64,000 nt of DNA from an uncultured Gemmatimonadota bacterium (GTDB taxonomy: Bacteria > JAAXHH01). Below are positions 2,769-45,741 of the stretch, one piece after another. The translations under genes were made by a program, and so were the position numbers. Every line of letters begins with the position of its first letter. Position 1 is the first letter of the stretch. The notes beneath the pieces were generated by a model that had not been told where the DNA came from, ran no database searches, and worked only from the letters and a program-made list of their open reading frames with translations. The stretch spans positions 3,616,001 to 3,680,000 of the forward strand of contig OX638340.1 of the NCBI GenBank assembly GCA_951812955.1. The letters run 5' to 3'.

Positions 2769-2773
2769 CAGCC

Positions 2774-3950: not shown

Positions 3951-3979
3951 TTGACAATCGACGTCCCGACGTCTAATAT
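3951..3979 (+). promoter_or_regulatory. Sigma70-like promoter of the methyltransferase gene with two GACGTC palindromes in the spacer; predicts a leaderless mRNA
   Basis: TTGACA (3951-3956), a 17-nt spacer atcGACGTCccGACGTC, then TAATAT (3974-3979). The ATG at 3986 lies 7 nt after the -10 element. Confidence 0.5.
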
Positions 3980-3985
3980 TAAAAT

Positions 3986-5122: not shown

Positions 5123-5141
5123 GGACTGAAGGAATCCTCAA

Positions 5142-5672
5142 TTACCTGTCTAGGTAAATCCAGTTCTCGCGAAGTTTACTCACGCCAAAGCGGTCAAGTG
5201 TGGCAGTTCGTGTGCCGAGTTCCCCTCTCGGATTGCGTCTAAAGTCTTCGATGGTTACCCTAGATAGGTAGACTTCCCTAAACGTCATTGGAAGTCTTGA
5301 TGAAGAGGGTTCGGTTTTGTTATCGACCTCGTATACAAATACACACATCCACTGGTCGCGCGCGCCATGTGTATCGACCGCACCGCCTTTTTTCTTCGTG
5401 GTTTTGATTTCAAGACCCTGATCTCCCGACTTAACGGAGTTTTCTGCGTAAACTCCCTGAACGAGAAGGTCAGGATGGCCATTGAAGTAGTTGTTTTCAG
5501 TAAGCACCCTTGAATGTTTAGCCAGACTGGCCGTCAGCATGTCCGATAGCACACCAGACATGATAGCGGGTCTCAACATATCGTCAAGCCGTTCCAGTCC
5601 GCGGTCTACCAGATGAGAATTGACATCGTGGAAGAAATCATAAACGTCCTGCATTGCCGACTCGAAATCCAT
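5142..5672 (-). CDS. Putative type II restriction endonuclease (PD-(D/E)xK-like)
   Basis: It is convergent with the MTase and 19 nt apart. The candidate catalytic core is GHPDLLVQ...GLEIKTTKKK. Family not recognised. Confidence 0.45.
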   Translation of the reverse strand: MDFESAMQDVYDFFHDVNSHLVDRGLERLDDMLRPAIMSGVLSDMLTASLAKHSRVLTENNYFNGHPDLLVQGVYAENSVKSGDQGLEIKTTKKKGGAVDTHGARDQWMCVFVYEVDNKTEPSSSRLPMTFREVYLSRVTIEDFRRNPRGELGTRTATLDRFGVSKLRENWIYLDR

Positions 5673-5864
5673 AATGCGGAGCTGATATGGTAAAGTCGAG
5701 TCAGGATTGAATGATTCTCTTACTACGACATTTCTGGATTGTTTGATCCGTTCGTCTCCTTCATGTTATCTGAATGCATGTTTCAACAAAATGTGATTTA
5801 CTGTGAATTTGTAAACCACTACCTACAATATCATGACCTAGAATCTCATGAAAGTAAAATCAAT

Positions 5865-7019
5865 CTATTCCTCCACGGCCCGCAGATCCAGCGCCAGGTC
5901 GCGGAAGCTCCGCACGCGGTGTAGGGTGACCAGGTTGGTGTCGTGCTGGTTCTTGCCGCCGCGCGCGGTGCGGGCGACGACGAGTAGATCGTCTCCGGAG
6001 ATGACCTGCGAGGCGTAGCTGAAGGACTCCATAATGCTCCTGCTCATGGCCACGCATCCGGCCTGGAACCAGTTGAGGGCGTCCATGCTGTACATAAGCA
6101 TTAGGATACGCCGCTCGTTTCCCGGCGGTCCGCTGAAACCGATTCGCCGAAGGGGTTCCCGGTCCTGCCACGGGTTCGTGGACAGGGTCACCGTGGTCCA
6201 GTAGAGACCGCCTTTATCGTCGTGGACGATCTGAAACTTGCACTGGGCGCCCGGCATGGGGTGGAACTGGAGGAAACGGTAGTCGAGGTTCCGACCGTCG
6301 TCCTCGACCCGTCCGATTGATGCCAGGCTCGACGTCGTGTGGCCATCGACGATCGTGCGCATGACCATCCGGATCTCGCCGTCCACCAGCACGATGTTGC
6401 CCTCCAGGAAGCTGTCGGCCGGCACCTTGTCCTTCAGGCTTTCGGGATATTTCCGCTGCGAGAGCACATCGGGGATACCAGGAAACCGGACGTGATTGGA
6501 CATGCGCCAGGCCGCCGGATCCAGGAGGTCTCGCGCCAGGTCGCCGGCCACCACCAGCGACTTCCAGTCGAAACGGCTGGGCGCGTCGCAGGTCTCGAAG
6601 GCGCGGTAGGCATGCCCGTTGTGGATCAATACCGGCGTCGGTGCGCAGTGGTGCTTCCCTTCGAAGAGCGTGACCGGCCCTTCCCAGGTGAAGCCGCCGT
6701 CCCGGGAGCGGCCGATGACGATGTCCCGGCTTTTGCGCTTGTTTCCGATGAGATAGGCGTCGTCCCCGTAGGCCCAGACGGTCGCCCAGATGAAATCCTG
6801 GCACGACGCGAGGGTCCACGTTGCGCCGTCGTCGTCACTGACCAGTACCTCGGTCTGATCCGGCACGGATTCCTTGAGCGGACTGGGACGGAACCATTCG
6901 TAACTGGCCAGCAGGCGTCCCGAGCGCATCCGCGCGATCGACGGTGAACCGGCGTATACGTTCTCCGGGTCGGGTGACGAGGCCAGTACCTGGTAGTCTT
7001 TGGCGAGCATTCGATTCAT
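5865..7019 (-). CDS. BNR-repeat / sialidase-like beta-propeller protein, no signal peptide
   Basis: It has Asp-box motifs SDDDGATW and SRDGGFTW. The N-terminus is not hydrophobic. Confidence 0.6.
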   Translation of the reverse strand: MNRMLAKDYQVLASSPDPENVYAGSPSIARMRSGRLLASYEWFRPSPLKESVPDQTEVLVSDDDGATWTLASCQDFIWATVWAYGDDAYLIGNKRKSRDIVIGRSRDGGFTWEGPVTLFEGKHHCAPTPVLIHNGHAYRAFETCDAPSRFDWKSLVVAGDLARDLLDPAAWRMSNHVRFPGIPDVLSQRKYPESLKDKVPADSFLEGNIVLVDGEIRMVMRTIVDGHTTSSLASIGRVEDDGRNLDYRFLQFHPMPGAQCKFQIVHDDKGGLYWTTVTLSTNPWQDREPLRRIGFSGPPGNERRILMLMYSMDALNWFQAGCVAMSRSIMESFSYASQVISGDDLLVVARTARGGKNQHDTNLVTLHRVRSFRDLALDLRAVEE

Positions 7020-12866: not shown

Positions 12867-13670
12867 ATGACTGTGATCTCAAAACGCATACTGCCCGGCG
12901 AGCGTCTCGACGACGCCTGGATGGAAGAAATACTCACGGACTTTTACAGGGACGGTTTCGCCCTTATACCGGGTGTGTTGACCCGGGATGAAATCGATGC
13001 CCTCCGCGAGGTGACGGACCGCTGCTTCAACGATCCCGTGCTGGCCGGCACTGATTACCTGAGCGGGCAGGGGGACGGATTCGTGCTCCGCAATACATTG
13101 GAACTGGACGCCGTATTCGTGGACATGCTGATTCGGGAGCCGATCCTGAGTCTGGCTGAAGCCGTCGTGGGAGAGGACTGTAAGTTCTGCGGGCAGAACG
13201 TGATCCGGAACGCGCCGGGCCAGGCCATTTCGCTGTGGCACGTGGACGACCGGGTGGAGTTCCCGTTGCCGGAAGACGTGCACCGCCACGACCCCCGCAT
13301 CCGCATGCCGGTGCAGTGGTTCACCATCCAGATGGCCCTGACAGATATCGATTCGGTGGAGGATGGTCCTACGCAGTTCGTGCCGGGCAGCCAGTATTCC
13401 GGCAGAGATCCCAACAGCCAGGAAAATCCGGAGTTCGAAGGCAGAGGACCGGTCTCTGCGTTATGCAAGGCGGGCGACGTCTACCTGCAGAACAACCAGT
13501 GCTGGCACCGGGGAGCGCCCGTCACATCGGATCAGATGCGCTATGTCTTCCAGTCCCAGTACGCCGCCCGTTGGGCCCACAGGCGGTTCAACGAGTATAA
13601 CCACGTACCTGTGCCGCCCACGGTTCTAAGCCGGGCCTCGGACAGGCTGCGTGGGGTGCTGGGTGCGTGA
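12867..13670 (+). CDS. PhyH-family Fe(II)/2OG dioxygenase (paralog 1)
   Basis: It has WHVDD (HxD), ALTDIDSVEDGPTQFVPGS and a distal CWHRG. A GTG at 12873 has better SD spacing (GGAG + 6 nt). Confidence 0.8.
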   Translation: MTVISKRILPGERLDDAWMEEILTDFYRDGFALIPGVLTRDEIDALREVTDRCFNDPVLAGTDYLSGQGDGFVLRNTLELDAVFVDMLIREPILSLAEAVVGEDCKFCGQNVIRNAPGQAISLWHVDDRVEFPLPEDVHRHDPRIRMPVQWFTIQMALTDIDSVEDGPTQFVPGSQYSGRDPNSQENPEFEGRGPVSALCKAGDVYLQNNQCWHRGAPVTSDQMRYVFQSQYAARWAHRRFNEYNHVPVPPTVLSRASDRLRGVLGA

Positions 13671-16215: not shown

Positions 16216-17094
16216 TCAGTCCCGTCGCAGGTTGCTGAACTCCGGTTTCGGACCGCCCTCTTCACGGTCCCACTGCCACAGTTCCGTGTAGGGCGACTGG
16301 GCGTGGAAACCGAAGATGACCGGTCCGTCTTCGCCCGCCCGTTCGAGCACGTCCGGATTGACCACGCGGGGCATCTCGTACTCGCAACGGGTCCAACGCC
16401 TCCGCCAGGGGCTCAACACCGCATAGCGCGGCTGGTCGGTCTGGTTCTTCGTCGTACCATGCCAGGTATTCACGTCGAAGAGCACGAGCGATCCTTCCGG
16501 GGCGACGGCAGTCCGGGCGTTGCCATAGGCCGAATCGGGCACGTCGAGGTACTCGTACCGGTGGCTGCCCGGGACGAACTCCGTCGCGCCGTTGGTCTCG
16601 GTAAAGGGGCTCAGGCAGAAGATCGTGTTCAAGGCGATCGAGTGGCTCGTGATCCGCCGGCCCTCGTCGGCATCGGGCATGGATGCGTCCCGGTTGTGAC
16701 CGGTGATACCGCTGTCGGAATGCAGCCCGTGTCCGCCTTCACCGGGCATCACCACCGATCCGTACACGGCGCTCAAAAGCGCGTCGGGGCCCAGGAAGTG
16801 TCTCGTCAGCCTCAGATGGTCGGGAAGCTGGTAGAACCGTTCGAACACCCGCGCCTTGTTGAAGAGCCATTCGAAACTGCCCCGCTCGCGGTTGGGGTAA
16901 CGTGTTTCGAGTTCCCTTCGCGCTTCCGCGCATTCCTCTGCCGTCAACTGGTCCGTCAGGATGGTGTATCCCTCAACCTTCAGGTCCAGCACGTGGGCTT
17001 GAAAGGATTCGTCTGTCATAGGTTGATTCCGGCTCTCATGTGATGCTTGTTCGACCAGCGCAGGGTTTGGCGGATCAACGGCCGGTATGGCCAT
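16216..17094 (-). CDS. PhyH-family dioxygenase (paralog 2)
   Basis: It has GLHSDSG (HxD), CLSPFTETNGATEFVPGSH and a distal NTWHGTTKN. The start is uncertain (17094 or ATG 17019). Confidence 0.75.
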   Translation of the reverse strand: MAIPAVDPPNPALVEQASHESRNQPMTDESFQAHVLDLKVEGYTILTDQLTAEECAEARRELETRYPNRERGSFEWLFNKARVFERFYQLPDHLRLTRHFLGPDALLSAVYGSVVMPGEGGHGLHSDSGITGHNRDASMPDADEGRRITSHSIALNTIFCLSPFTETNGATEFVPGSHRYEYLDVPDSAYGNARTAVAPEGSLVLFDVNTWHGTTKNQTDQPRYAVLSPWRRRWTRCEYEMPRVVNPDVLERAGEDGPVIFGFHAQSPYTELWQWDREEGGPKPEFSNLRRD

Positions 17095-17993: not shown

Positions 17994-18794
17994 CTAAAGG
18001 GCGACTTCCTCGACAGGCTGCGTGCCGGTCTCGTAGGCGGGCCGCCACCGGTCGTGGGCCATGGACTCCTCCTCGCTGAGCCCGCACAGCCAGTTCCAGG
18101 TGTGGATGCGGCGTCTCAGGTCCCGGTAGGATTCCACTCCACTCGTGTATGGCGCGGCCGGCCGGTCGCGGTACACGGGGATTTCTTCCGAATCGATGAG
18201 CCAGTCGCGCTGCGGCGGTGCATTGCGGAAGTAGGAGAATTTGATCATGCTGCGGGGCTTGTGATTGAGCTTCGGGCCCGCCCGGTGCCAGATGCCGTAC
18301 CGGGTGATGGCCACGGTGCCGGCCTTCACTACGAGCGAAAGCTGGCCCGTGAGATCGCCGTAGTGGGCGAGGGCGTCGCGGTTGACCGCCCGGCAGTGGG
18401 AACCGGGCAGGATCATGGTCGGCCCGTCTTCGATCCCCACGTCCTGCGGATAATAGTAGCACTGGAGTTCGTTGATCTCGTAACCCTGGCCGGAAATGCC
18501 GTCCGAATGCCAGTCCTGACCCGCGACGGGCTCGTTTATGAGGTGGTGATGGCCGCCCGTCGGCATCAGGAAGTTGGCACCGAGCAGCGAACGTATCACG
18601 CCTGCCAGCCGCGGATGGAGCAGGACTTCGCGGACGAAATCCGGTGAACCGACCAGTTCCTTCGCGCGGCCGACCTTGACGTTGCGGCACTGCGCGTTGA
18701 AACCGGGATCCACCATTTCTTCAAGCACCGCGTAACCCTTCGCCACGAAATCCATCACGTCGTCGTCGGTCATTGTCGGTCTGATCTCCGCCAT
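17994..18794 (-). CDS. PhyH-family dioxygenase (paralog 3)
   Basis: It has QDWHSDG (HxD), DVGIEDGPTMILPGSH and a distal GIWHRAG. Confidence 0.75.
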   Translation of the reverse strand: MAEIRPTMTDDDVMDFVAKGYAVLEEMVDPGFNAQCRNVKVGRAKELVGSPDFVREVLLHPRLAGVIRSLLGANFLMPTGGHHHLINEPVAGQDWHSDGISGQGYEINELQCYYYPQDVGIEDGPTMILPGSHCRAVNRDALAHYGDLTGQLSLVVKAGTVAITRYGIWHRAGPKLNHKPRSMIKFSYFRNAPPQRDWLIDSEEIPVYRDRPAAPYTSGVESYRDLRRRIHTWNWLCGLSEEESMAHDRWRPAYETGTQPVEEVAL

Positions 18795-19235: not shown

Positions 19236-19533
19236 GGCGTTCTGATTATCGATGTCAGGAGTACGAATGCTCCTGCAATGGTACAGAGGCTACCGGTACC
19301 GTGTCAAGCAGGAATGAACCGTCTTTTTTGAAGGTGGTTTCGGCATGGAAGCCGCTGGTCTTGACAGCGTCCGGCACGCCGCTTAAGTTGCCTTCTGACG
19401 GTCATCGAAATGCGATCATCCAGGTCATTCAGTTCATTCCGACCAGCTGAACAGCGTGCGCAATTCGGGCAGAAACTTCCGGTCCGTCGATTTCCCGTTA
19501 CCAATTTCGATTCTCAGTTTAAAGGTATTCTAT

Positions 19534-20283
19534 ATGTCCCACGCGCAACCCCTGAATGCCCAGCAGATCGCCTACTTCAAGCTAAACGGCTACCTGGTCC
19601 TGAAGAACGTTTTCGACGAGGGAACCCTGGAGGCATGGCGGCGGCAGATCTGGCGGGCGCTCGATGGCTGCCTCGAAGATCCCGCGACCTGGCCCAGGGA
19701 AACGAGCGGTCTAGACGGGTACGATTACGATCCGCCCGAATCGGCCCTTGTGCACCATCCACAGATGATGGCGATCATCGACCAGCTCAGCGGGGGAACT
19801 TTCGTCGCTGGCGACGGCATTCCGATCATTCGGTGGCCCGATCCAGGAAAGTCCTGGGAAATGCCCCAAACGGGACATATCGATGCCTACGGGGGACGCT
19901 GGCTGCCCTTCATGATCGGCGCGACGACCTACCTGTACGACGTGGAACCCGGCGGCGGAGCCTTGATCTACTGGCCGGGAAGCCACCACGCCGCTCACCG
20001 GTACTTTCTCGAGCATCCCTCGCATGTCGACGGCAGCTTCCTGGAGATCGAGGGGTTTTCGTGGGACGTGTTCTGCGACAACCCGGCCACCGGCGGCCAG
20101 GAGTTTACCGCGAAGGCCGGCGACGTGGTGCTCTGGCATGCCTACCTGACCCACAACGGATCGGAAAATACCAGTCATTCGCCGCGCTTCGCCCTCTTCG
20201 CACGCTGGAACCATGAGAAACACCTGGAGCAGTCCTTCAGATACGAGATCCCCGAGGATCTGTGGAAGTATTGGGCGGTGTGA
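19534..20283 (+). CDS. PhyH-family dioxygenase (paralog 4)
   Basis: It begins MSHAQPLNAQQIAYFKLNGYLVLKNVF. It has TGHIDAYG (HxD), GGGALIYWPGSH and a distal YLTHNGSEN. The ORF-track N-extension from 19456 looks non-coding. Confidence 0.75.
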   Translation: MSHAQPLNAQQIAYFKLNGYLVLKNVFDEGTLEAWRRQIWRALDGCLEDPATWPRETSGLDGYDYDPPESALVHHPQMMAIIDQLSGGTFVAGDGIPIIRWPDPGKSWEMPQTGHIDAYGGRWLPFMIGATTYLYDVEPGGGALIYWPGSHHAAHRYFLEHPSHVDGSFLEIEGFSWDVFCDNPATGGQEFTAKAGDVVLWHAYLTHNGSENTSHSPRFALFARWNHEKHLEQSFRYEIPEDLWKYWAV

Positions 20284-20452: not shown

Positions 20453-20863
20453 ATGAGCTCAGTACCGGAACCGGATCAAGAGGAAGATCTTATGGGGAAA
20501 ATCATGAATGATTCCGCGAGCGTATCCGTTTTCGAGGTCGTTGGCAACGCTCTTTGCGTTGCTTCCGACGACGGCCAGAGAGTACACGACCGACTTTCGA
20601 CTGCATTGAAGGATAGCCGCCATGTGAATCTTTCTTTTCGCAACGTGACATCGCTTACTTCGGCTTTTCTGAACACCGCGGTCGGCCAATTGTATGGAAC
20701 CTTCAGCGAAGATCATATACGTACGCAGTTGAACATCGAAGAAATGTCCCTGGATGATCTGGTGTTACTCGAGCGTGTGGTCGACACAGCGAAGCAATAC
20801 TTCAAAGACCCTCAAAGATTCGAACAAGCGCTTCGTGAGGAAATGGATGACTATGACGACTGA
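20453..20863 (+). CDS. STAS-like domain protein (DUF4325-type)
   Basis: The pattern GQRVHDRLSTALKDSRHVNLSFRNVTSLTSAFLNTAVGQLYG matches what I recall for DUF4325 (x-V-x-LDF-x-GV...SSF). It has an acidic C-terminus. Confidence 0.5.
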   Translation: MSSVPEPDQEEDLMGKIMNDSASVSVFEVVGNALCVASDDGQRVHDRLSTALKDSRHVNLSFRNVTSLTSAFLNTAVGQLYGTFSEDHIRTQLNIEEMSLDDLVLLERVVDTAKQYFKDPQRFEQALREEMDDYDD

Positions 20864-21395
20864 TTCCAAGGCGCTCGCGGTGAATGAACACGAATTCAGT
20901 CGTAGAGATAGGTTGTTTCTTGATACTAATATCTGGTTGTATCTATTCGGTCCGCATAAACCCAAGGCAAGAGCGATCGACACGTATTCAAGTGTGCTTA
21001 AGCGGATTCTGGATGCGGGTAGCAGAATCTATATCGACGTTCTGATCGTTTCAGAGTTCATCAACGCATGCGCCAGGTTGAATTGGCATCTTGCAACAAA
21101 CAGGAAAATTGGTTTCAAAGCATTTCGAAATTCGTCATCTTTCAAATCAGTCGCCAGGTCGGTGTCAAGCGACGCCGCGCGGGTTATGTCCCACTGCTTG
21201 CGTGTGGAAAGTGGATTCTCGGACATGGCCGCGACCGAATTGCTCAATGAATTTGTCACCGGAAAATGCGACTTCAACGATCAAGTTATCATAAGACTCT
21301 GTAAAAAAGAAGAACTAACCCTGATTACACACGACGCCGATTTCAAAGGCGCGGGGATTCCGATTTTGACAGCGAACCATCGTCTTCTGAACTAA
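20847..21395 (+). CDS. PIN-domain nuclease (VapC-like)
   Basis: It overlaps the upstream gene by 17 nt (or 11 nt if it starts at 20853). The acidic triad candidates are LFLDTNIWLYLF, VLIVSEFINA and LITHDADF. Confidence 0.65.
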   Translation: MTMTTDSKALAVNEHEFSRRDRLFLDTNIWLYLFGPHKPKARAIDTYSSVLKRILDAGSRIYIDVLIVSEFINACARLNWHLATNRKIGFKAFRNSSSFKSVARSVSSDAARVMSHCLRVESGFSDMAATELLNEFVTGKCDFNDQVIIRLCKKEELTLITHDADFKGAGIPILTANHRLLN

Positions 21396-21399
21396 TCCC

Positions 21400-22227
21400 A
21401 TGCCCGCCTACCCCCGCTACCTCACCAAAGCTCAATTGGAGCAGTTCTGGTCCGACGGCTACCTGGTTTTGAAAGGCACGCTGGATCAAGAAGTGGTAGA
21501 AAAAGCCCGCGAATTCCTGCTGGACCTGATCCCGCGGGACCTGGTCATCCCGGACCACTACCACGCGAACCACGGCCGGTTCAAGCCCCACCACCCCGAC
21601 GGGAATGGCAGCTTTTTTGAACCTGCGATGCTGCCCCTGATGCAGAACGAAGCACTTTACGGCGCTGCCGTGGATATACTGGAGACAGAATACATCCGGG
21701 TGTGGGACGGTTCGGCGGGGATAACGCTAAGAAACCGCGCCATGGAAGGACGGCTCCAGAACCTCCACCTCGACGCTGTACCGGGAGGGCCCGAAGACCT
21801 GAATGAGGGGTTCCTTCGCACGGGAATAGGTATCGGCGGATGTTATTACCTGAACAAGGTTGAAGGTGAGGGCGGCGGCATCCACGTGGTTCCCGGCGGG
21901 CCGAACCGGGTGAGGGATATCATGCTTAACGAACCGGACGGTCTGACGCGCAACAACGGCTGGGGTCATATCACCGATTTTTCGTCGTCCATGGAGGTAA
22001 CCGGTGATGCCGGCGATTTCGTGCTGATGCATCACCTGATGCCCCACTCGGCCAGCGCCAATCACAACGCCGCGCCACGGATCGCCCAGTTCACCCGTCT
22101 GCAGGCCCTGACGGACGATGACGCCCGCCTCGCTCCGGGTCCCGACCGACCCCTGGACCCCGCAGCGCTTGGCGCCCTGACACCCCTGGGACGCAAACTG
22201 TTCCGCCTGGCCCCGTGGATCGGGTAA
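21400..22227 (+). CDS. PhyH-family dioxygenase (paralog 5)
   Basis: It has LTKAQLEQFWSDGYLVLKG, NLHLDAV (HxD), GGGIHVVPGG and a distal LMPHSASAN. Confidence 0.7.
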   Translation: MPAYPRYLTKAQLEQFWSDGYLVLKGTLDQEVVEKAREFLLDLIPRDLVIPDHYHANHGRFKPHHPDGNGSFFEPAMLPLMQNEALYGAAVDILETEYIRVWDGSAGITLRNRAMEGRLQNLHLDAVPGGPEDLNEGFLRTGIGIGGCYYLNKVEGEGGGIHVVPGGPNRVRDIMLNEPDGLTRNNGWGHITDFSSSMEVTGDAGDFVLMHHLMPHSASANHNAAPRIAQFTRLQALTDDDARLAPGPDRPLDPAALGALTPLGRKLFRLAPWIG

Positions 22228-22242: not shown

Positions 22243-24216
22243 TTGGAACGGACGTACTCCATGTCCTCTGAACCTCCCCGGTCCCGTGGCCCTTCGGCCA
22301 TATCCCTGCGGGCCGGGATCATCGGGCTCGCGCTCTCCGCCGTGGTGGCTTTCTGGGGCCAGTTCGCCGCCGATCACGCCGGTTACAACTATACCACCTA
22401 CGCCCATATCCCCTCGGCGCTGCTGATCCCCTTCCTGATCCTGATCCTGGGTCCCCACGTCCTGCTCAAGAGGCTGGCGCCCGGGTACGCCCTGACGACT
22501 TCCGAGCTGATCGTGATTTTCGTCATGGGCCTGATCGGTTCGATGGTGCCCGACTGGGGCATGACGAGATACCTGGTCTCCCTCATCACGGGGCCCTTCT
22601 ACCATGCGAGTCCCGAGAACCGCTGGGCGGAGACTTTTTTCGAGACCTTGCCCGGGTGGCTCGTGATCAGCGGCAAGACGGACGCGGTACGGGTTTTCTA
22701 CGAAGGCGCCGCGCCGGGTTACCGGATCCCGTGGATGGCCTGGATCTCGCCCCTGCTGTGGTGGATGTCGTGTTTCGCCGCCCTGATGTGGACGGGCGCA
22801 TGCATCGTGGTCATCCTGCGAAAGCAATGGGTCAGCCACGAAAGGCTGCGCTTTCCCCTGGGGGAGGTATCGCTCAACCTGATGGGCGTGGCGAAGGACC
22901 CGAACGAGCCGCCCATGGTCCGCACGACTGCCTTTCGTATCGGCGCCGGCCTGTCGCTGGCCGTCGTGTGCTGGAACATCGCCTCCTACTGGGACATCGT
23001 TACCCCTATCCCCATCATGGGGCCGGACCTGCTGTATCTGAAGGTCCATCCGTCGATACCGGATCTTCCCATCCGGCTGAATGTCTTCGTACTGTGTTTC
23101 GCTTTCTTCATAAACGCCGAGATCCTGTTCAGCCTGTGTTTCTTCCTGCTCTTCACCACGCTGCAGCGGGGGCTGATGAACATGCTCGGGATCACGGCGG
23201 CCACGACCATGTCTCCTACCGGGCTCGTGGGCACCCAGTCCATCGGTGCCCTGATCGCCCTGGTGGTGTGGGGATTGTGGATGGCCCGTCGTCACCTGGC
23301 CGGTGTGGCCCGGCGGGCGTTTCGAAAGGATCCGTCGATCGATGACAGCAGTGAGTTCTTCTCGTACCGGGTGGCGGTTTTCGGATTGATCTTCGGCATG
23401 CTCTACCTGCTGGCATGGCTTTACAGCATCGGCATGTCGCTGCCCGTCAGCCTTGTCCTCCTGGCCGTACTCTTCATCGTCTACATCGGAATGGCCCGGA
23501 TCGTTGCGGAGGCGGGTCTGGTCGCCATGGACCTGCCGGTAACAGCCAACAACTTCACCGGGGGCATTATCGGCGCCGACAACCTGGACCCGTCCTCGAT
23601 CACCGCTATGGGCATGACGAACGCCTTCGCCCGGAACTGGCGGACCTTTACGATGATCGGGCTGTCTCACGCCGCCTACCTGCAGCGCTGGATGGGGCCG
23701 TCCACCCGGCACCTCTTCCTCTGGATCTGCCTGGCCTTCGCCGTCAGTGTCGTAACTTCCCTCTACTACTACATCAGCGCGGGTTATGCAGTCGGCGCCG
23801 ATAATCTGCTGTCCAAGCCCGGCGACCTCGTACCCTTCTTCTACAACACGATCATGACGTGGAACAGCAGCGCAAGCAGTGTCTCGGAACTGGAACTGAT
23901 CTTCTTCGGGAACGGTATCGTCCTGTACATGCTGATGATCCTCGGACGCTTCATGTTTCTCTGGTGGCCGCTGCATCCCATCGGCCTGGTCGCCGTGGCC
24001 GCGGACACCGTGCGGTTCATGTTCCTACCCTTCCTGCTGGCCTGGCTCGTCCAGGTAATCCTGCTGCGCCTGGGTGGAGGAGCCCTTTACCGCAGAGCGC
24101 AGCCCCTGTTTCTCGGCATCCTGGTTGGATATGTCCTTGGGATGGCCCTCTCATTCCTGGTGGACAGCCTGTGGTTTCCGGCCGCACCGCACCAGTTCGA
24201 ATCCTTTATCAACTGA
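22243..24216 (+). CDS. Large polytopic membrane protein of uncharacterised family (paralog A), candidate transporter
   Basis: It is 657 aa with many hydrophobic segments throughout. It shares blocks with 28259-30250: RKQWVSHERLRFPL, WWPLHPIGL and LLRLGGGALYRRAQP. From memory it may be DUF6785/DUF6784-type; not verified. Confidence 0.7.
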   Translation: MERTYSMSSEPPRSRGPSAISLRAGIIGLALSAVVAFWGQFAADHAGYNYTTYAHIPSALLIPFLILILGPHVLLKRLAPGYALTTSELIVIFVMGLIGSMVPDWGMTRYLVSLITGPFYHASPENRWAETFFETLPGWLVISGKTDAVRVFYEGAAPGYRIPWMAWISPLLWWMSCFAALMWTGACIVVILRKQWVSHERLRFPLGEVSLNLMGVAKDPNEPPMVRTTAFRIGAGLSLAVVCWNIASYWDIVTPIPIMGPDLLYLKVHPSIPDLPIRLNVFVLCFAFFINAEILFSLCFFLLFTTLQRGLMNMLGITAATTMSPTGLVGTQSIGALIALVVWGLWMARRHLAGVARRAFRKDPSIDDSSEFFSYRVAVFGLIFGMLYLLAWLYSIGMSLPVSLVLLAVLFIVYIGMARIVAEAGLVAMDLPVTANNFTGGIIGADNLDPSSITAMGMTNAFARNWRTFTMIGLSHAAYLQRWMGPSTRHLFLWICLAFAVSVVTSLYYYISAGYAVGADNLLSKPGDLVPFFYNTIMTWNSSASSVSELELIFFGNGIVLYMLMILGRFMFLWWPLHPIGLVAVAADTVRFMFLPFLLAWLVQVILLRLGGGALYRRAQPLFLGILVGYVLGMALSFLVDSLWFPAAPHQFESFIN

Positions 24217-24368: not shown

Positions 24369-25733
24369 ATGGCCACGAAATCCGGACGCCCCAATCTCCT
24401 GTTTATCATGGACGACCAGCACCGGCACGACTACCTGTCCGCGGCGGGAGCGACCTTCGTGCGCACGCCGAACCTGGACTGTTTGGCGGAACGCGGGGTC
24501 CGATTCAGCCAGTGCATAACCAACGCCCCGGTCTGCGCGCCCGCGCGCATCGGCCTGGCCAGCGGCTACCAGCCCGCGCGGCTGGGGTGCCTGGACAACA
24601 ACTGCTACCTGCCCCGCCATATCACGCCCTATTACGTCCGGCTTCGGGACGCGGGATACCGGGTCGGGTGCGTGGGGAAACTCGACCTGGCCAAGCCGGA
24701 TCCCTACAACGGCCGCCACGGCGACCGAGCCCGGGTGTTCGGTTGGGGTTTCACCCATCCCGTGGAATGCGAAGGCAAGATGCACGCGGGCATGGCGGAC
24801 CAGCCGCGGGGACCTTATGGATTCTGGCTTCAGGAGCAGGGACTCTTCGAACGCTTCCGGACGGATTACGCGGCCCGGGGAGCGCGGGGCTGGATCGAGG
24901 GTGCTTCCCATGATTCTATATTGCCTGAGGACGCTTTCGAGGATGCCTACATTGGCCGCCGCGCCGTGGAATGGATGGACACCGTCCCCGACGATTACCC
25001 GTGGCATCTCTTCGTCAGCTTCGTGGGGCCGCACGATCCCTTCGATCCGCCTACGTCATACGCGGAACGATACCGGGGCGCTGCCGTGCCGCCGGCAATA
25101 CGAAGCAACGAAGAGGGGAAGCCGTCCTGGGTCAACGCCCGTCGGCGCGACCTGTCCGAAGATGAAGTGGCAGTTACGCGCCGGCAGTATTGCGCGGTCA
25201 TCGAACTGATCGACGACCAGGTAGGCCGGATCATCGAAGCCGTAGAACGGCGGGGCATGGCGGAGGATACCATCGTCGTGTTCGCCAGCGACCACGGCGA
25301 AATGCTGGGCGACCATGGCCTGTACACCAAATCCGTTCCCTACGAGGTGGCCCTGCGCGTGCCGCTCATTGCCGCTGGACCAGGCATAGCGGGAGGGCGT
25401 ACTTCCGACGCCCTCGTGGAACTGATCGACGTCAATCCGACCCTGTGCGGTCTGGCGGGTCTGCCCGCCCAGGAAGGGCTCGACGCCAGCGACTTCAGCG
25501 CCGTGCTCACCGGGGATCGTTCGACCCACCGCGAGGAAGCGGCCAGCGCGCTTCGCGAATTCCGGCTCGTACGCACGGCGGATCACAAGCTTGTGGTGCA
25601 CCACACGGGTGAAACGGAGCTATACGACCTGAAAAACGATCCTGAAGAGCTTGAAAACGTGGCGGCCGATCGGCCCGATGCGGTCAACGCGCTGCGAAGG
25701 CGTCTGCAGCGGCGATTTCACTTCCCGCCCTAA
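24369..25733 (+). CDS. Formylglycine-dependent sulfatase, no signal peptide
   Basis: It has PNLLFIMDDQHRHD and the CxPxR signature VCAPARIGLASG. The catalytic domain begins at about residue 8. Confidence 0.85.
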   Translation: MATKSGRPNLLFIMDDQHRHDYLSAAGATFVRTPNLDCLAERGVRFSQCITNAPVCAPARIGLASGYQPARLGCLDNNCYLPRHITPYYVRLRDAGYRVGCVGKLDLAKPDPYNGRHGDRARVFGWGFTHPVECEGKMHAGMADQPRGPYGFWLQEQGLFERFRTDYAARGARGWIEGASHDSILPEDAFEDAYIGRRAVEWMDTVPDDYPWHLFVSFVGPHDPFDPPTSYAERYRGAAVPPAIRSNEEGKPSWVNARRRDLSEDEVAVTRRQYCAVIELIDDQVGRIIEAVERRGMAEDTIVVFASDHGEMLGDHGLYTKSVPYEVALRVPLIAAGPGIAGGRTSDALVELIDVNPTLCGLAGLPAQEGLDASDFSAVLTGDRSTHREEAASALREFRLVRTADHKLVVHHTGETELYDLKNDPEELENVAADRPDAVNALRRRLQRRFHFPP

Positions 25734-25787: not shown

Positions 25788-26624
25788 TCAAGACCGGCCG
25801 TAAGGCGCGCCATCGGGCGAGGCATGTTGCGGTGAGACGATCTGGCGTCGTTCGGGCGTAAGACGGTCCAGCAGTTCGGGCGAGGGCTGGTACCCGTGGC
25901 GGAAATTGCCCCAGGAAGGTCCGTACCGGTAGACCACGATACGGCGCGTTCCCGCGTTTCGCCGGGTGGCCGAACCGTGGGAGATGCCATCCACGAACAA
26001 CAGGGCGTCGCCGGCCTCCATAAACAGTTCCGCGGAACCGGTAATGCCCTCCACGGAAGCGCCCTTGGGCTTCATGGCGTGCCGGGCGAATTCTGGGTGG
26101 ATGAAGTTGGATTTGTGACTGCCCGGGATGACCATGGTGGCGCCGTCCCCGGGACCGATGTCGGTCAGGGCCATGAGCACATTGACCTGCCCGCACATGA
26201 ACCGGCCGCCGTGGTAGCGGAAGCCGTTGCGCATGATGGGCGGGTATCCCCCGGAATGCAGCCCGATCGCCTCTCCCGGCTCCCGGAAATTTGCGAAGTT
26301 CTCGTCGATGAACAGCGGGCCGTGTGCGTAGTCGAAGGTACCCTCCCCGCCCACGAAATGCTTGACCCGGTCGAACCACGAAGGATGGTCGATCAGGGCT
26401 TCGAACGGGGCGCCCGCTTCGTAAATCTGCTGGAGGTTCAGGCCGTCCACGGTGCCGTAGGTATGGGCGTTGACGAATCCGTGCCATTCGCCCGGCGACA
26501 GGGCCGGGAATTCGTCCAGGGAGGCGTTCAGTTCCGCCACTTCCGCCCTCGACAGGGCCTGCTTCAGATGGAGGAATCCGTTCAGGTCGAAGAGATAGAC
26601 ATCCAGGTCGTCAAGATTGCTCAT
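25788..26624 (-). CDS. PhyH-family protein (paralog 6) with H-S-G in place of the HxD iron ligands
   Basis: The start is ATG 26624 (MSNLDDLDVYLFDLNGFLHLK). It has GLHSGGY (codons at 26250-26258), ALTDIGPGDGATMVIPGSH and a distal DGISHGSATR. Confidence 0.65.
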   Translation of the reverse strand: MSNLDDLDVYLFDLNGFLHLKQALSRAEVAELNASLDEFPALSPGEWHGFVNAHTYGTVDGLNLQQIYEAGAPFEALIDHPSWFDRVKHFVGGEGTFDYAHGPLFIDENFANFREPGEAIGLHSGGYPPIMRNGFRYHGGRFMCGQVNVLMALTDIGPGDGATMVIPGSHKSNFIHPEFARHAMKPKGASVEGITGSAELFMEAGDALLFVDGISHGSATRRNAGTRRIVVYRYGPSWGNFRHGYQPSPELLDRLTPERRQIVSPQHASPDGAPYGRS

Positions 26625-26808: not shown

Positions 26809-28182
26809 ATGAAGGCCGTTTCACAGCCCAACGTGCTGATTGTGCTGAGTGATCAACTGCGGCGGCAGGCCCTGTCCACCTACGGCGATCCGAACATCGT
26901 CACGCCTCACGTCGACGACCTGGCCGGCCGGGGTGTTCGATTCGAGAACGCCAGTTCTACCTGTCCCATCTGCGTCCCTTTCCGTTTCACTTTCATGACG
27001 GGGCTGTACGCCCATGACCGGAAGGTACCTGGTATCGAGTACAGGATGTCTCCCGCGGAACGCACCCTGGCCGACGAGTTCAACGAGGCGGGGTACGAAA
27101 CGATCTATACGGGCAAATGGCATCTCGACGGAGGTCACGGCCGCATGGGGTCCGCCCGGCAGTGCGGGCGGATGCCCGTGAAGAAGGCCTACCGGGGCCG
27201 CTGGCAGAAGTGGATGGGTTTCGAACTCAGAAACGGCCCCTTCGATACCTTTTATTTCGAAGACGACGACCCGACGCCAAAACCGGTAGAAGGATACCAG
27301 ACCGACGGGCTTTTCGAGCTCGCCATGGACTACCTCGAGACCCGGGATCCGTCCCGTCCCTTCTGCATGGTGGTTTCCGTCGAGCCGCCCCACGATCCTT
27401 TCGAGGCCCCGGAGGCGATGCAGCGCACCTGGGAGGCGATGGACATCGTGCTTCCGCCCAACGTCGACGCGGCCGACGCCGAGGCCATGGAACGGATCAT
27501 GCTCAACCGGAAGCGGTATTACGCCATGGTGGAAAACCTGGACTGGAACATGGGGCGCCTCGGCGCATTTCTGCTGCGAACCGGCCTCCACGGCGAGACC
27601 GTGGTCGTGTTTCTTTCGGATCACGGAGAACTCGGCGGCGCCCATGGACTCCGGGGAAAGCAGTGGCCTTACGAGGAGTCGACGGGAATCCCCCTGATCG
27701 TGGCGGATCCACGGCACCCGGACCGGGCCGGTGCCTTGATCGAAGATCCGGTCTCCACCGAGGACCTGTTCCCCACCATACTCGGTCTGGCCGGGCTGCG
27801 ACCACGGGACGCCCTTCCCGGCGAAAACCTTGCACCGTTGATACACGGCAACACCGGACGGCTGGAGCGGGAAGGCGTGATGCTCGAGTTCGTGGCTGAA
27901 CTGCGTCAGGGCATGGCCTTCTACGACCAGGTCTGGCGTGGGTACCGATCCGCTCGGTACAAGTATACCGTGTGCGGGGACAACCTCGGCGGCGCCGGGC
28001 CGTGGCAGTTCTTCGATCTGGCGGAGGATCCCTGGGAACAGCGAAATCTCATTGACGATCCCGCTTTCCGGCCGGAGATCACGCGTCACCATGGCCTTCT
28101 CCTGGACAGGATGAAGGAGACCGACGACCACTTCGTACTCCTACCCGCCTTCGGAATGGAAGGATTGAATACCTGGGATTGA
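26809..28182 (+). CDS. Formylglycine-dependent sulfatase, no signal peptide
   Basis: It has PNVLIVLSDQLRR and the CxPxR signature CVPFRFTFMTG. The domain starts at about residue 7. Confidence 0.85.
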   Translation: MKAVSQPNVLIVLSDQLRRQALSTYGDPNIVTPHVDDLAGRGVRFENASSTCPICVPFRFTFMTGLYAHDRKVPGIEYRMSPAERTLADEFNEAGYETIYTGKWHLDGGHGRMGSARQCGRMPVKKAYRGRWQKWMGFELRNGPFDTFYFEDDDPTPKPVEGYQTDGLFELAMDYLETRDPSRPFCMVVSVEPPHDPFEAPEAMQRTWEAMDIVLPPNVDAADAEAMERIMLNRKRYYAMVENLDWNMGRLGAFLLRTGLHGETVVVFLSDHGELGGAHGLRGKQWPYEESTGIPLIVADPRHPDRAGALIEDPVSTEDLFPTILGLAGLRPRDALPGENLAPLIHGNTGRLEREGVMLEFVAELRQGMAFYDQVWRGYRSARYKYTVCGDNLGGAGPWQFFDLAEDPWEQRNLIDDPAFRPEITRHHGLLLDRMKETDDHFVLLPAFGMEGLNTWD

Positions 28183-28258: not shown

Positions 28259-30250
28259 ATGTCCCAAACCAGCGAGACGACGCCACAGACCGGCGAAACC
28301 GGAAGCGGTGGCGCGGCTAAAACACTGACGACCGGTCTCACCCGCAGGGCCCTGCTGATCGGCATCTTTCTGTCTGTCCTGCTGAACATCTGGACGATTC
28401 ACGCGGGCTACATCAGCCAGTCGTCGTTCATCAGCCTGACCCACCTGCCCGTTTCCGCCCTGTTCCCCTTCCTGCTGGTGCTGCTGGGGCTCAATCCGCT
28501 GTTGAAAGTCTTCTGGCCGTCCAGGGTACTGCACCGCAATGAACTGATAATCGTGTTCTTCCTGGTCTTTACCGCGTCGACCATTCCCGCGTGGCCCTTC
28601 AGTTCCTACTGGATCAGCGGTATCACGGGGCCGTACTATAACGCCACCACGGAGAACCAGTGGGCGGAGCTCTTCTTCCAGTATCTGCCCTCCTGGCTGA
28701 TCGTCCAGGACGAGCAGCGCGCCCTCTCGTGGTTTTTCGAAGGCATCCCTGACAGCCGCCCCCCGGTCTTCGGCATCATTCGCAATGCCTGGACCGTACC
28801 GATGTTCTGGTGGGTCACCTTCTTCCTCGCCATCTTCGTGGTCGGCGCGTCGGCCATGGTCATGCTTCGCAAACAGTGGGTGGAACACGAGCGGCTGTCC
28901 TTCCCGCTCGCCCAGATTCCGCTGATCCTGGTCGAAGAGGAGAAGGGCCGCGCGTTGCCCGCCGTGATGCAATCGAAGCTGTTCTGGTACGCTTTCGGCA
29001 TCACGTTGTTTATTTTCCTCTGGAACATCGTCGGTTTCTTCAACTGGGTCAGCGCCATCCCCATTGGGCCGCTGCACAACTTCCCCGTTGTGATCGCCCG
29101 GGCGTTTCCCGCTATTCCCGTCAAGTTCAATTTCCTGGTTGCGGGCGTTGGATACTTCACGAACCTGAACGTCCTTTTCAGCATATGGGTGTTCTTCGTC
29201 ATCATGACCATTCAGCAGGGCATCATGACCCGCCTCGGCGTGCCCAATGCCTTCGCGGTCGTCAAGTCGCAGCATTCCGGCGGGTTTCTCGTGTTTGCTC
29301 TGTACGCTTTGTGGGCGGCGCGGCGGCACCTGAAGGACGTCGTGATGAAAGCACTGGGCAAGGCGCCCCACGTGGATGATTCGAAGGAGTTCTTTTCCTA
29401 CCGGATGGCCGCGCTGGGCGTCCTGGGTGGCGTTACCTACATCGTGTGCTGGCTTTATGCCACGGGCATGTCCCTCGGAATCATCGCCTTCATGATGGGG
29501 TCGTTGCTGATCATGTTCGTGGGCGTGACGCGCATCGTGGCGGAAACGGGCATCGTGTTCCTTGACCTGCCCTTCGAGACCCACGACTTCACGGTGGCCG
29601 TCATCGGTTCGGGGAGTATCAGTACGCGGGATCTGACAAACCTCGCCATAGCCAATTCCTACGCCCGCAACTGGCGGACGCTCGGCATGTGTTCCATGGG
29701 GCATATCGCCAAGGTCGACGACGAGATGGGCGGTACGGGTAAAGGATCCTTCAAGACGATCACGGCCGTTCTCGCCCTGAGTATAGTCGTGTCGTTGATA
29801 TTCACGATTTACCTGGGATATAACCACGGAGGGGCTTCGCAGTTCTTCGAGCCTGCGTTCACCAACGGGACCAAGCTACCTTACGACAACCTGGTCAAAT
29901 GGATCAATAACAGGGAGGCGATCACCGGGACCGAGTTCTGGTTCATGGTCTTCGGAGGTGTGATTACCACACTGCTGATCCAGGCTCACCACCGGTTCAC
30001 CTGGTGGTCGCTGCACCCCATCGGATTCACCGTTGTGCTGACGCCGGGCATGGCCAGTTCGGCTTTCTCGCTGTTTGTGGTCTGGTGCGTGAAGGCCCTG
30101 CTCCTGAAGATCGGGGGCATCCAGCTGTACAGAAAGGCCGTACCCGCTGTCATGGGCATGCTCGTTGCGTTCGTACTTGGCGTGTTTCTTTCGTACGTGG
30201 CCGACGTCGCCTGGTTTCCCAGGGCAGGCCATCCCGTTCAGAACTGGTAA
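28259..30250 (+). CDS. Large polytopic membrane protein of uncharacterised family (paralog B)
   Basis: It is 663 aa and collinear with 22243-24216. Shared blocks are RKQWVEHERLSFPL, WWSLHPIGF and LLKIGGIQLYRKAVP. Confidence 0.7.
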   Translation: MSQTSETTPQTGETGSGGAAKTLTTGLTRRALLIGIFLSVLLNIWTIHAGYISQSSFISLTHLPVSALFPFLLVLLGLNPLLKVFWPSRVLHRNELIIVFFLVFTASTIPAWPFSSYWISGITGPYYNATTENQWAELFFQYLPSWLIVQDEQRALSWFFEGIPDSRPPVFGIIRNAWTVPMFWWVTFFLAIFVVGASAMVMLRKQWVEHERLSFPLAQIPLILVEEEKGRALPAVMQSKLFWYAFGITLFIFLWNIVGFFNWVSAIPIGPLHNFPVVIARAFPAIPVKFNFLVAGVGYFTNLNVLFSIWVFFVIMTIQQGIMTRLGVPNAFAVVKSQHSGGFLVFALYALWAARRHLKDVVMKALGKAPHVDDSKEFFSYRMAALGVLGGVTYIVCWLYATGMSLGIIAFMMGSLLIMFVGVTRIVAETGIVFLDLPFETHDFTVAVIGSGSISTRDLTNLAIANSYARNWRTLGMCSMGHIAKVDDEMGGTGKGSFKTITAVLALSIVVSLIFTIYLGYNHGGASQFFEPAFTNGTKLPYDNLVKWINNREAITGTEFWFMVFGGVITTLLIQAHHRFTWWSLHPIGFTVVLTPGMASSAFSLFVVWCVKALLLKIGGIQLYRKAVPAVMGMLVAFVLGVFLSYVADVAWFPRAGHPVQNW

Positions 30251-40680: not shown

Positions 40681-40859
40681 TGGGCTGACAGATTATGGAG
40701 TAATAGAAATCATTCTGTATTGCCTTGATGTGTTTTTTGTCACCTTCGGGCGATTGTGCGTTATATTCCGGATTGTATTCGTTCCTTCGACCCCTTACAA
40801 GCCCAAAAACAGCGCCAATGCGCGACCAAATACGCGCTGCGCGCTGCGGAGAACTGCCC

Positions 40860-41711
40860 ATGCGACTGACGGAACAGCAACATGCGTTTGTGGATACCTT
40901 CGGCTACCTCGGTTTTCCTGGGTTATTGAAAGACCGGATCGACGAGATCATCGACGCCTTCGAGTCCGTGTGGACCGAGCGCGGCGGCGGGCACGACGGA
41001 AGGCCCCACGACGGTACGGCGCGGTCCTGCATCGTGCCCTTCATCGATCAGCATCCGGTGCTGTCCTCGCTCATAGACGATCCTCGGGTCAACGGCATCT
41101 TCAGCAGCCTCCTGGGCGATGATTTCGTCTACCTGGGCAGCGACGGCAATTTCTACGTCAGCGATACCAACTGGCATTCCGACACGGACTGGTCGGGCAA
41201 GATGCGTGGCAAGCCGCCCCGCATCTACTTCAAGATGGCCTTCTATCTCGATCCCCTGACGCGGGATTCGGGTGCGCTTCGGGTGATTCCGGGCAGCCAC
41301 CGGTACGGCGACGCCTATGCCGAAGCGCTGGAAACCCGGATCAGGAAGTCGGGGGAAAACTGGGGCGTCGAGGGCTGGGAGGTGCCCGCGGTGGCGCTCG
41401 AGACGCAACCGGGCGACGTCGTCGTATTCAACCAGAACACCAAGCACAGCGCCTGGGGAGGAAGCGACCGGCGCAGGATGTTCACGATCAATTGTACGGC
41501 GCGTTTCGCCGAGAAGGATATGCAACTACTGAAGAACGAGATCGCCGCGGGCGCCCGGTTCTGGCTCGACAGCGTCTACGGCGAAGCCATGCTGGAGACG
41601 GCCGGTCCGGCGCGCATGAAGCACCTGGAGCAGCCCCTGGCCCACCAGGACCACCTGGCGGAGGAAGTGCGGAAGGCTAAACTGCGGATGGCGGAGCCGT
41701 CGAGGGGTTAA
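40860..41711 (+). CDS. PhyH-family dioxygenase (paralog 7)
   Basis: The start is ATG 40860 (MRLTEQQHAFVDTFGYLGFPGLL). It has NWHSDTD (HxD) and DSGALRVIPGSH. It is a close paralog of 53932-54720. Confidence 0.7.
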   Translation: MRLTEQQHAFVDTFGYLGFPGLLKDRIDEIIDAFESVWTERGGGHDGRPHDGTARSCIVPFIDQHPVLSSLIDDPRVNGIFSSLLGDDFVYLGSDGNFYVSDTNWHSDTDWSGKMRGKPPRIYFKMAFYLDPLTRDSGALRVIPGSHRYGDAYAEALETRIRKSGENWGVEGWEVPAVALETQPGDVVVFNQNTKHSAWGGSDRRRMFTINCTARFAEKDMQLLKNEIAAGARFWLDSVYGEAMLETAGPARMKHLEQPLAHQDHLAEEVRKAKLRMAEPSRG

Positions 41712-44165: not shown

Positions 44166-44930
44166 ATGAATTACCCGAACACGCTCAAGCGGCGCATCCG
44201 CGACGGCGAACTGCTGCTGGGTACGGTCCTGACCGCCCATAATTCGTTTGACGCCTCGGTGGTCTGCGGTTCGGATATCGACTTCCTCTGGATCGATACC
44301 GAGCACTCCGCGAGTGCCGTAGAAGACCTGGGCATGGTGCCGGTGATCGCCCGCCAGCGGGACGTGGCGCCCATGATCCGGATCGCGTGGAATGATCCCG
44401 CCTTGATCAAGAAGGCCTACGATATCGGTGCCGTGGCGGTCATGATCCCCCAGGTCAACACGGCCGAGGAGGCGGAGCACGCGGTTCGGCACGCCCGGTA
44501 CGCTCCCGAAGGACAGCGCGGGATTTCCCCCTACTGGGCGATGATGGCGGGACTGGACTTCAAGCACGTAGTTAAAACGGCCAACGCGGAGACCGTCACC
44601 GTGCTGCAGATCGAAAGCGTCGAAGCCCTGGATAACCTGGACGAAATCAAGCAGGTGGAAGGAATCGACGTCCTCTTTCTCGGTCCCACGGACCTGTCCG
44701 CGACGATGGGCGTGATCGCTGAGACCGAATCACCCGAGGTACAGGGCGCTATGCGCGAGTTTCCCGGCCGGCTGGAAGGTTCCGGGATCATGGCGGGGAC
44801 GACGCTGGCCGATTTGCAGGATATCCAGCAGAAAATTGAATGGGGTTACCGATTCATCAACGTGGGCAGCCCCATGGGTTACGGTATGCAGGTGCTGAAG
44901 GACAACCTGGATGCGCTGCGGAGTGGATGA
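44166..44930 (+). CDS. HpcH/HpaI-family 2-keto-3-deoxy-acid aldolase
   Basis: It has DFLWIDTEHSA, PMIRIAWNDPALIKKAYDIGAVAVMIPQVNTAEEA and RYAPEGQRG. Confidence 0.8.
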   Translation: MNYPNTLKRRIRDGELLLGTVLTAHNSFDASVVCGSDIDFLWIDTEHSASAVEDLGMVPVIARQRDVAPMIRIAWNDPALIKKAYDIGAVAVMIPQVNTAEEAEHAVRHARYAPEGQRGISPYWAMMAGLDFKHVVKTANAETVTVLQIESVEALDNLDEIKQVEGIDVLFLGPTDLSATMGVIAETESPEVQGAMREFPGRLEGSGIMAGTTLADLQDIQQKIEWGYRFINVGSPMGYGMQVLKDNLDALRSG

Positions 44931-44934
44931 GCGG

Positions 44935-45741
44935 ATGATCAACGAAGAACAGGTCCGGAAATTCCAGGAAATGGGATGGCTGGTGGTGGAGGGCGTCTAC
45001 ACCCACGAGGAAGCCGACGAGGTGGCGCGACTGGCACTGCAGACGGCGGATTCCATGGATGTAGAGGAATCCATGGCCGGCTATCTGCTGGACCGTTCCG
45101 AATCGGGAGAATCCGCGCCCCGGAAGATCGACAGTCCCTACCTGCGGAATCCGCTATTTCGCGATTTTGCCCTGGATGGCAGGCTTCGGGAGATACTCCG
45201 GCGAATCACCGGCGAAGAACCCCTGCTCAAGAGCGACCAGCTTTTCATGAAACCGCCGCGGTTCGGATCGGAGAAACCTTACCACCACGACAATTTCTAC
45301 TTCCGTTGCACGCCGGGCGGCCACGTGATCACGGCCTGGATCGCCCTCGACGACGTGGACGAGGAGAACGGCTGCCTTCGATACATCTCCGGTTCGCACA
45401 AGAAGGGGATCATCGAGCACGTGGAGGTCCCCGGCCAGCCCTACAACCTGGCTCCTCCGGACGACTTGATCGATTGGGAGAACGAGGCCTCAGCGCCGGT
45501 GCGCAAGGGCGGCGTGGTCTTCCACCACTCGGAGACCCTCCACTCGTCGCGTCGCAATACGTCAGATCGATGGCGGCGCGGCTACGCGACGCATTGGGTT
45601 ACCGCTGCGGTGACCAGCGAGACCGACAACCTGGACGGCGCATATTTTCAAAGCGACGAGTACGCGGAGTACGTGCGGGCCGTGGACCGGACGAAGGATG
45701 ACGCGGCGCAAGTTGGTACCGCCGATTCGGGAGGGGCCTGA
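44935..45741 (+). CDS. PhyH-family dioxygenase (paralog 8)
   Basis: It starts 4 nt after the aldolase stop. It has PYHHDNFYF (HxD), AWIALDDVDEENGCLRYISGSH and a distal FHHSETLHSS. Confidence 0.8.
   Translation: MINEEQVRKFQEMGWLVVEGVYTHEEADEVARLALQTADSMDVEESMAGYLLDRSESGESAPRKIDSPYLRNPLFRDFALDGRLREILRRITGEEPLLKSDQLFMKPPRFGSEKPYHHDNFYFRCTPGGHVITAWIALDDVDEENGCLRYISGSHKKGIIEHVEVPGQPYNLAPPDDLIDWENEASAPVRKGGVVFHHSETLHSSRRNTSDRWRRGYATHWVTAAVTSETDNLDGAYFQSDEYAEYVRAVDRTKDDAAQVGTADSGGA

Follow-up and report, generated by a model that had tools for sequence, protein, structure and literature searches.

A glycine at the metal site of one PhyH protein

The locus considered here raises the question of what an Fe(II)/2-oxoglutarate (2OG) oxygenase of the PhyH family does when the carboxylate of its metal-binding motif has been exchanged for glycine. 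H-x-G and H-x-A commonly serve as a quick flag by which Fe(II)/2OG halogenases are picked out from sequence, H-x-G being the signature of the WelO5- and BesD-type enzymes, and the protein in question carries just such an exchange of the H-x-D/E carboxylate for Ala or Gly, with the residues H-S-G at this site. An initial annotation of this DNA had suggested that it could be a free-standing halogenase, some other non-canonical enzyme, or a catalytically dead variant. Our analysis favours the second of these, with an acidic residue (D212) at the position of a metal ligand in the enzyme HygX, and makes both the halogenase and the dead variant unlikely. The gene and the residues of interest are as follows:

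25788..26624, minus strand: gene of the PhyH Fe(II)/2OG oxygenase family, 278 aa, encoding a variant metal site (the target)
26250..26258, minus strand: H123-S124-G125 codons (CAT TCC GGG), Gly where the canonical carboxylate stands, read directly
25989..25991, minus strand: D212 codon (GAT), proposed relocated carboxylate ligand (D-x3-H), from conservation and alignment to HygX
25977..25979, minus strand: H216 codon (CAC), distal iron-binding His (DGISHGS), from conservation and alignment
25944..25946, minus strand: R227 codon (CGC; H216+11), proposed 2OG C5-carboxylate binder, from conservation and alignment to PAHX

The target open reading frame runs from the ATG at 26624 to the stop at 25788 and its 278-aa product matches the Pfam PhyH profile (PF05721) with 71.8 bits (cut-off 22) over profile positions 1–212 of 213. 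The plus-strand letters at 26250–26258 are cccggaatg, the reverse complement of which, CAT TCC GGG, encodes H123-S124-G125 inside GLHSGGY, so that the canonical H-x-D/E...H facial triad is absent from the protein. This direct reading confirms the motif and codons given in the initial annotation, as do the 29 aa which separate H123 from A152 (the spacing to the conserved strand was put at about this value) and the position of the distal His, H216, in DGISHGS.

The target is one of 13 PhyH genes in the window, by which we mean the whole 64-kb stretch of DNA that was analysed. The 12 further PF05721 genes listed here were found by an all-against-all phmmer comparison of the likely genes, and each was confirmed with Pfam:

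12867–13670, plus strand: PhyH paralog (PF05721)
16216–17094, minus strand: PhyH paralog (PF05721)
17994–18794, minus strand: PhyH paralog (PF05721)
19456–20283, plus strand: PhyH paralog (PF05721)
21400–22227, plus strand: PhyH paralog (PF05721)
40725–41711, plus strand: PhyH paralog (PF05721)
44911–45741, plus strand: PhyH paralog (PF05721)
47376–48209, plus strand: PhyH paralog (PF05721)
52947–53900, minus strand: PhyH paralog (PF05721)
53932–54720, minus strand: PhyH paralog (PF05721)
62196–63002, plus strand: PhyH paralog (PF05721)
63045–63839, plus strand: PhyH paralog (PF05721)

When all 13 proteins were aligned with MAFFT, the column occupied by H123-S-G125 in the target read H-x-D in 12 of the 12 paralogs (WHVDD, LHSDS, WHSDG, GHIDA, LHLDA, WHSDT, YHHDN, WHQDA, WHQDA, WHSDT, WHRDI and WHFDG), in agreement with the earlier statement that the 12 other proteins all retain a carboxylate here. 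The same alignment placed an acid four residues before the distal His in none of these canonical paralogs (0/12). Most of the PhyH genes in the window are mutually distant, with closer groups formed only by those at 40725, 53932 and 63045 and by those at 44911, 47376 and 52947. The presence of 13 PhyH genes in 64 kb is in keeping with the expansion of this family in the sponge symbionts Poribacteria, where a very high abundance of PhyH genes of unknown function has been reported (PMC3909097).

The H-S-G motif and an acidic position near the distal His are conserved

Searches with the target returned 3216 homologs at E ≤ 1e-3 from a protein database clustered at 90% identity, and the representatives of 50%-identity clusters numbered 1277 at this threshold and 75 at E ≤ 1e-30. 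Conservation was assessed in a close set consisting of the target and the best 120 of the 3216 homologs (at least about 70% identical; n = 121) and in a distant set consisting of the best 150 of the 1277 representatives aligned to the family HMM, of which 97 cover the H-S-G site and 48 cover both metal-site segments.

H123, S124 and G125 were each found in 121 of the 121 proteins of the close set, which shows that the motif is no chance or sequencing oddity, and among the distant representatives covering the site 69 of 97 read HSG and 87 of 97 read H-x-G. Where both sites were covered, H-x-G/A was present in 43 of the 48 representatives and H-x-D/E in none (0/48), and together with the conservation of Gly125 this indicates that the glycine is under strong selection. 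The H-S-G motif is a conserved feature of the family, and the free variation at Gly125 among orthologs, which the initial annotation had named as speaking against a halogenase, does not occur. It should be noted that such conservation, which that annotation counted in favour of a halogenase, would be expected equally for a metal site of the HygX type described below.

An acidic position elsewhere in the protein was almost as well conserved. D212, which lies four residues before H216, was present in 120 of the 121 close homologs, while H216 and R227 were both invariant (121/121 each). Among the 48 representatives covering both sites, [DE]-x3-H was found in 41, R227 was likewise retained in 41, and H-x-G/A was combined with [DE]-x3-H in 39. 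The simplest interpretation of such a near-perfect pairing of H-x-G/A and [DE]-x3-H is that one ligand has been swapped for another. Both His residues, the PGSHK strand and many other positions were invariant across metagenome-assembled genomes (MAGs) labelled as several phyla, with D212 nearly so.

Two other residues were considered as metal ligands and rejected. The Glu in FIHPEF (E178) had been put forward initially as an acid that might complete the triad, but the column is variable among the close homologs (H 73, D 17, E 9). The underlying idea that some other acid completes the triad holds in substance, with D212 rather than E178 as the residue we propose. We also rejected H170, since the PGSHK motif containing it occurs in canonical PhyH enzymes too, and these use H-x-D...H.

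The pattern of conservation also bears on whether the target might be a catalytically dead paralog which has lost iron binding and retained a binding or regulatory role. The canonical carboxylate is indeed gone, and inactive proteins of the 2OG-oxygenase fold exist. However, conservation is extreme, with at least 70% identity kept among homologs from MAGs labelled Gemmatimonadota, Latescibacterota, Zixibacteria, Chloroflexota and Poribacteria. The two His residues are invariant or nearly so, as are D212 and the putative 2OG-binding Arg, and the orthologs stand in tight operon-like arrangements with enzymes. We regard a dead protein as extremely unlikely. The conservation of R227 instead suggests that the enzyme is probably active.

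D212 aligns with the relocated ligand of HygX

HygX (PDB 4XC9, 4XCA, 4XCB and 4ZPI) was the best PDB match to the target by phmmer (E 2e-13) and by the family profile (E 2.3e-17), as well as by Foldseek with an AF2 model of the target (E 6e-17). The model has a pLDDT of 81 and a pTM of 0.84, with residues 129–142 just after the motif having pLDDT <50, and the target has the double-stranded β-helix fold of the solved PhyH-type enzymes. In the sequence alignments, D212 falls without gaps on the Glu of the HygX E-x3-H motif (NEALMH). H216 aligns with the distal His in each of HygX, TlxI and human PAHX, and R227 with the Arg of GFRK in PAHX (2a1x), which we take to be Arg275, the residue binding the 2OG C5 carboxylate. 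The residue four before the distal His is Gly in TlxI and Pro in PAHX in the HMMER-printed alignments. The H-x-G stretch itself was not aligned to HygX by sequence methods: when an 86-aa segment around H-S-G was compared with the PDB, the only part to match HygX was the downstream strand, and a 106-aa HygX fragment used against the protein database returned one 133-aa relative (54% identity) and no direct H-x-G alignment.

HygX is described in a 2026 review as having the site H-X-G...E-X3-H in which a relocated acidic residue serves as iron ligand, with Lys137 sitting in the gap left by the Gly and tuning reactivity, and as an oxidative cyclase, not a halogenase, which in vitro converts hygromycin C to hygromycin B by an orthoester-forming oxidative cyclisation (PMC13374393). 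An H-x-G enzyme of the PhyH fold with the E-x3-H motif is therefore already known, and it is an oxygenase. Our assignment of D212 as an iron ligand combines the sequence alignment to HygX with the description in this review.

We think it likely that the target is an Fe(II)/2OG oxygenase with a relocated 2-His-1-carboxylate site of the HygX type. H123 would act as the proximal His and G125 would vacate the usual Asp position, while D212, four residues before the distal H216, would supply the carboxylate in the same way as the Glu in the HygX H-x-G...E-x3-H site, and R227 would hold the 2OG C5 carboxylate. Three protein ligands and bidentate 2OG would leave a single coordination site, for O2, and by analogy with HygX, with one site for O2 and none for a halide, neither halide binding nor radical halogenation would be expected. 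The reaction catalysed would then be the hydroxylation of a substrate or another oxidation such as desaturation or C–O cyclisation.

A true free-standing Fe(II)/2OG halogenase would be built differently, with iron held by H123 and H216 only, the halide bound beside G125, and D212 having a second-sphere or substrate-binding role. The H-x-G motif is that of the WelO5/BesD type and Gly125 is invariant, the host appears from MAG names to live in sponge tissue rich in chloride and bromide, and the site of HygX itself has been called 'reminiscent of halogenases' (PMC13374393). Set against this is a conserved acid located exactly where HygX, the nearest solved relative, has its carboxylate ligand. 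The target scores only 11.2 bits with TIGR01762 (SyrB2-type chlorinating enzymes; cut-off 226.3), and the known halogenases are further from it in fold than are HygX and many hydroxylases. The genetic context is not that of a carrier-protein system or biosynthetic cluster, as no carrier-protein, NRPS or PKS genes were found among the Pfam-annotated neighbours in the window and in eight related loci (L001–L007 and L028), and the neighbouring genes look catabolic. A search of the literature found no report on PhyH halogenases with a glycine facial triad. We consider a halogenase to be very unlikely.

The second coordination sphere gives some room for another reading. The position of HygX Lys137 is taken by N148 in the target, so that the second sphere differs, and this column contains N in 114 and D in 7 of the 121 close homologs and mostly N, S or T in distant homologs. 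The iron might thus be held by a 2-His site which takes its third, anionic ligand (a carboxylate, sulfate or hydroxyl) from the substrate at the position vacated by G125, with D212 acting as a base or hydrogen-bond partner. Apart from this difference from HygX, such a site would be consistent with the room that Gly makes beside the iron, with the invariant S124 next to the vacated position, and with neighbouring genes which suggest anionic substrates (sulfate esters and sugar acids). It is at odds with the near-perfect pairing of H-x-G/A and [DE]-x3-H and with the report that the homologous acid of HygX is a metal ligand (PMC13374393), and we judge it to be rather improbable.

The target lies between two sulfatase genes

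The preferred reading, a HygX-type oxygenase, leads to the matter of what the enzyme might act upon, and for this we considered its neighbours in the window:

22243..24216, plus strand: DUF6785/DUF6784 membrane protein upstream of sulfatase A (Pfam 358.5 bits)
24369..25733, plus strand: sulfatase A, 454 aa, transcribed towards the target in convergent orientation (Pfam Sulfatase 134.6 bits; CAPAR formylglycine motif)
26809..28182, plus strand: sulfatase B, 457 aa, in divergent orientation to the target across a gap of 184 bp (Pfam Sulfatase 162.8 bits; CVPFR motif)
28259..30250, plus strand: another DUF6785/DUF6784 membrane protein, lying downstream of sulfatase B (Pfam 363.8 bits), syntenic in related genomes

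Divergent transcription from a sulfatase had been recorded in the initial annotation, and the sulfatase concerned is B. Sulfatase A has no obvious signal peptide, and both sulfatases begin directly with the catalytic domain, in which the C-x-P-x-R motif reads CAPAR and CVPFR, respectively. Both would therefore appear, judging from these N-termini, to be cytoplasmic enzymes. The two DUF6785/DUF6784 proteins (about 660 aa) are mutual paralogs (E 5e-130) and may be transporters for sulfatase substrates. Each of them adjoins a signal-peptide-less sulfatase, and the arrangement is mirrored around the target.

Further along the window, the genes between 30798 and 37104, which adjoin the sulfatase–target unit, encode an FmdA/AmdA-like amidase, a PALP enzyme, a γ-glutamyltranspeptidase and a class V aminotransferase, and this block is kept together with the unit even in the Zixibacteria MAG L076 (62–69% identity). 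At the other end, 1804–5672 has a low third-position GC of 0.47–0.58 (about 0.8 elsewhere) and contains an N6/N4 DNA methylase at 3986–5122 plus open reading frames without a Pfam match; this patch probably represents foreign DNA in the form of a restriction-modification or mobile island. A PIN-domain open reading frame at 20754–21395 (plus strand; GC3 0.56), located between two PhyH genes, may be a toxin–antitoxin remnant.

Orthologs are found in three recurring contexts

The closest genome loci are from MAGs labelled Gemmatimonadetes or Latescibacterota, beginning with APA_bin_41 (98%) and OY762445.1 (97%) and followed by the IRC, SB and RHO bins, and further matches to the target come from MAGs labelled Poribacteria, Zixibacteria and Chloroflexota. 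The bin names suggest that many of these genomes come from sponge microbiome studies. A comparison of 87 related loci identified three recurring contexts, which we refer to as A, B and C.

Context A is the arrangement seen in the window and was found in 21 loci (L001 and L008–L027), with sulfatase B adjacent to the target at about -185 nt. Sulfatase A lies on the other side of the target in 19 of the 21, the exceptions being L027 and L008, of which L008 stops at the target. In the Zixibacteria MAG mentioned above, a 60% ortholog of sulfatase B adjoins the target. Context B was found in about 30 larger Latescibacterota genomes and consists of an MR_MLE (enolase superfamily) gene, the target and an NTP_transferase gene, with gaps of -13 and +30 nt, and a divergent 2-hydroxyacid dehydrogenase gene upstream (for example, L028 8837–11717); this arrangement points to a pathway for sugars or sugar acids that has no connection with sulfatases. 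In context C, seen in about 16 loci, the target is preceded by a sulfatase, a pair of further paralogs and an O-methyltransferase, and is followed by an RraA-like gene and a gene for a heparinase II/III-like protein (about 1000 aa). We considered sulfatase adjacency as a family-wide rule and rejected it, as orthologs occur in at least three contexts and also alone.

The two paralogs added in context C are situated upstream of the target ortholog (for example, at 5157–6032 and 6074–6937 in L002, and also in L030, L044 and L051) and are 27–30% identical to the target. They carry H-G-A (H-x-A as in SyrB2) combined with E-x3-H, or with a D that is separated from the distal His by one residue more. 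As H-G-A is again accompanied by an acid, the relocated-acid design seems to extend to a wider clade.

Taken together, the signal-peptide-less sulfatases and DUF6785 membrane proteins in the window, and the enolase-superfamily, 2-hydroxyacid dehydrogenase, sugar nucleotidyltransferase and heparinase II/III-like neighbours of the orthologs, lead us to propose tentatively that the substrate might be a small, polar, sugar-derived and possibly sulfated compound which is taken up and then catabolised in the cytoplasm. This is the weakest part of our account, since the context of the gene is not the same in all lineages. A more speculative suggestion, which we regard as improbable, is that the relocated site re-orients the reactive oxo group and so directs non-hydroxylating chemistry on a sulfated or sugar-derived metabolite, either as an oxidative C–O cyclisation, the oxidative cleavage of a sulfate ester, or a true halogenation. 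In the case of sulfate-ester cleavage, it is possible that the ester is one resistant to the flanking hydrolytic sulfatases, with an AtsK-like logic realised in a PhyH fold. Our literature search found no report linking phytanoyl-CoA dioxygenases and sulfatases in sponge symbionts.

Significance and comparison with known systems

The target family is very widespread, with members in Latescibacterota, Gemmatimonadota, Poribacteria, Zixibacteria and Chloroflexota, and its iron site is probably a variant of a kind already known. As such, it would be a large and conserved false-positive under the H-x-G/A halogenase flag, with a compensating acid four residues before the distal His, and H-x-G by itself would be an unreliable flag for halogenases among PhyH-fold proteins. 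To our knowledge, the HygX-type relocated triad has so far been known from one characterised enzyme, and a broad environmental family with a HygX-like arrangement would provide material for comparing the ways in which reactivity is steered by ligand relocation. It could also contribute to an explanation of the expansion of PhyH genes in sponge symbionts, and if the non-hydroxylating chemistry suggested above were true, it would be the first function for part of that expansion.

Among the known systems, the carrier-protein-dependent halogenases SyrB2, CmaB and CurA-Hal differ from the target family in that a conserved acid occupies the position of the HygX ligand in the latter, as well as in the poor TIGR01762 score of the target (11.2 bits for a cut-off of 226.3) and its lack of carrier or NRPS neighbours. 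The free-substrate halogenases WelO5, BesD and HalB are like the target in having the H-x-G motif and in needing no carrier protein. Human PAHX (2A1X), TlxI, EctD and the 12 paralogs in the window differ from it in having H-x-D and no acid four residues before the distal His.

HygX shares with the target a PhyH-type double-stranded β-helix, H-x-G, an acid four residues before the distal His, and the GD..LL..[DE]...HG and PGSHK.NF strands. The two proteins are only 22–24% identical, the relocated acid is Glu in HygX and Asp in the target, and the Lys at the vacated site (Lys137) is replaced by Asn148. They also differ in setting, as HygX belongs to an aminoglycoside biosynthetic cluster of Streptomyces hygroscopicus and the target lies among sulfatase and PhyH genes in a sponge-symbiont genome; no orthosomycin or aminoglycoside cluster surrounds the target or its orthologs, the neighbours of which are sulfatases, DUF6785 proteins, PhyH paralogs, MR_MLE and NTP_transferase. 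By analogy, the target probably resembles HygX at the level of the metal site, a likeness that does not imply the reaction of HygX.
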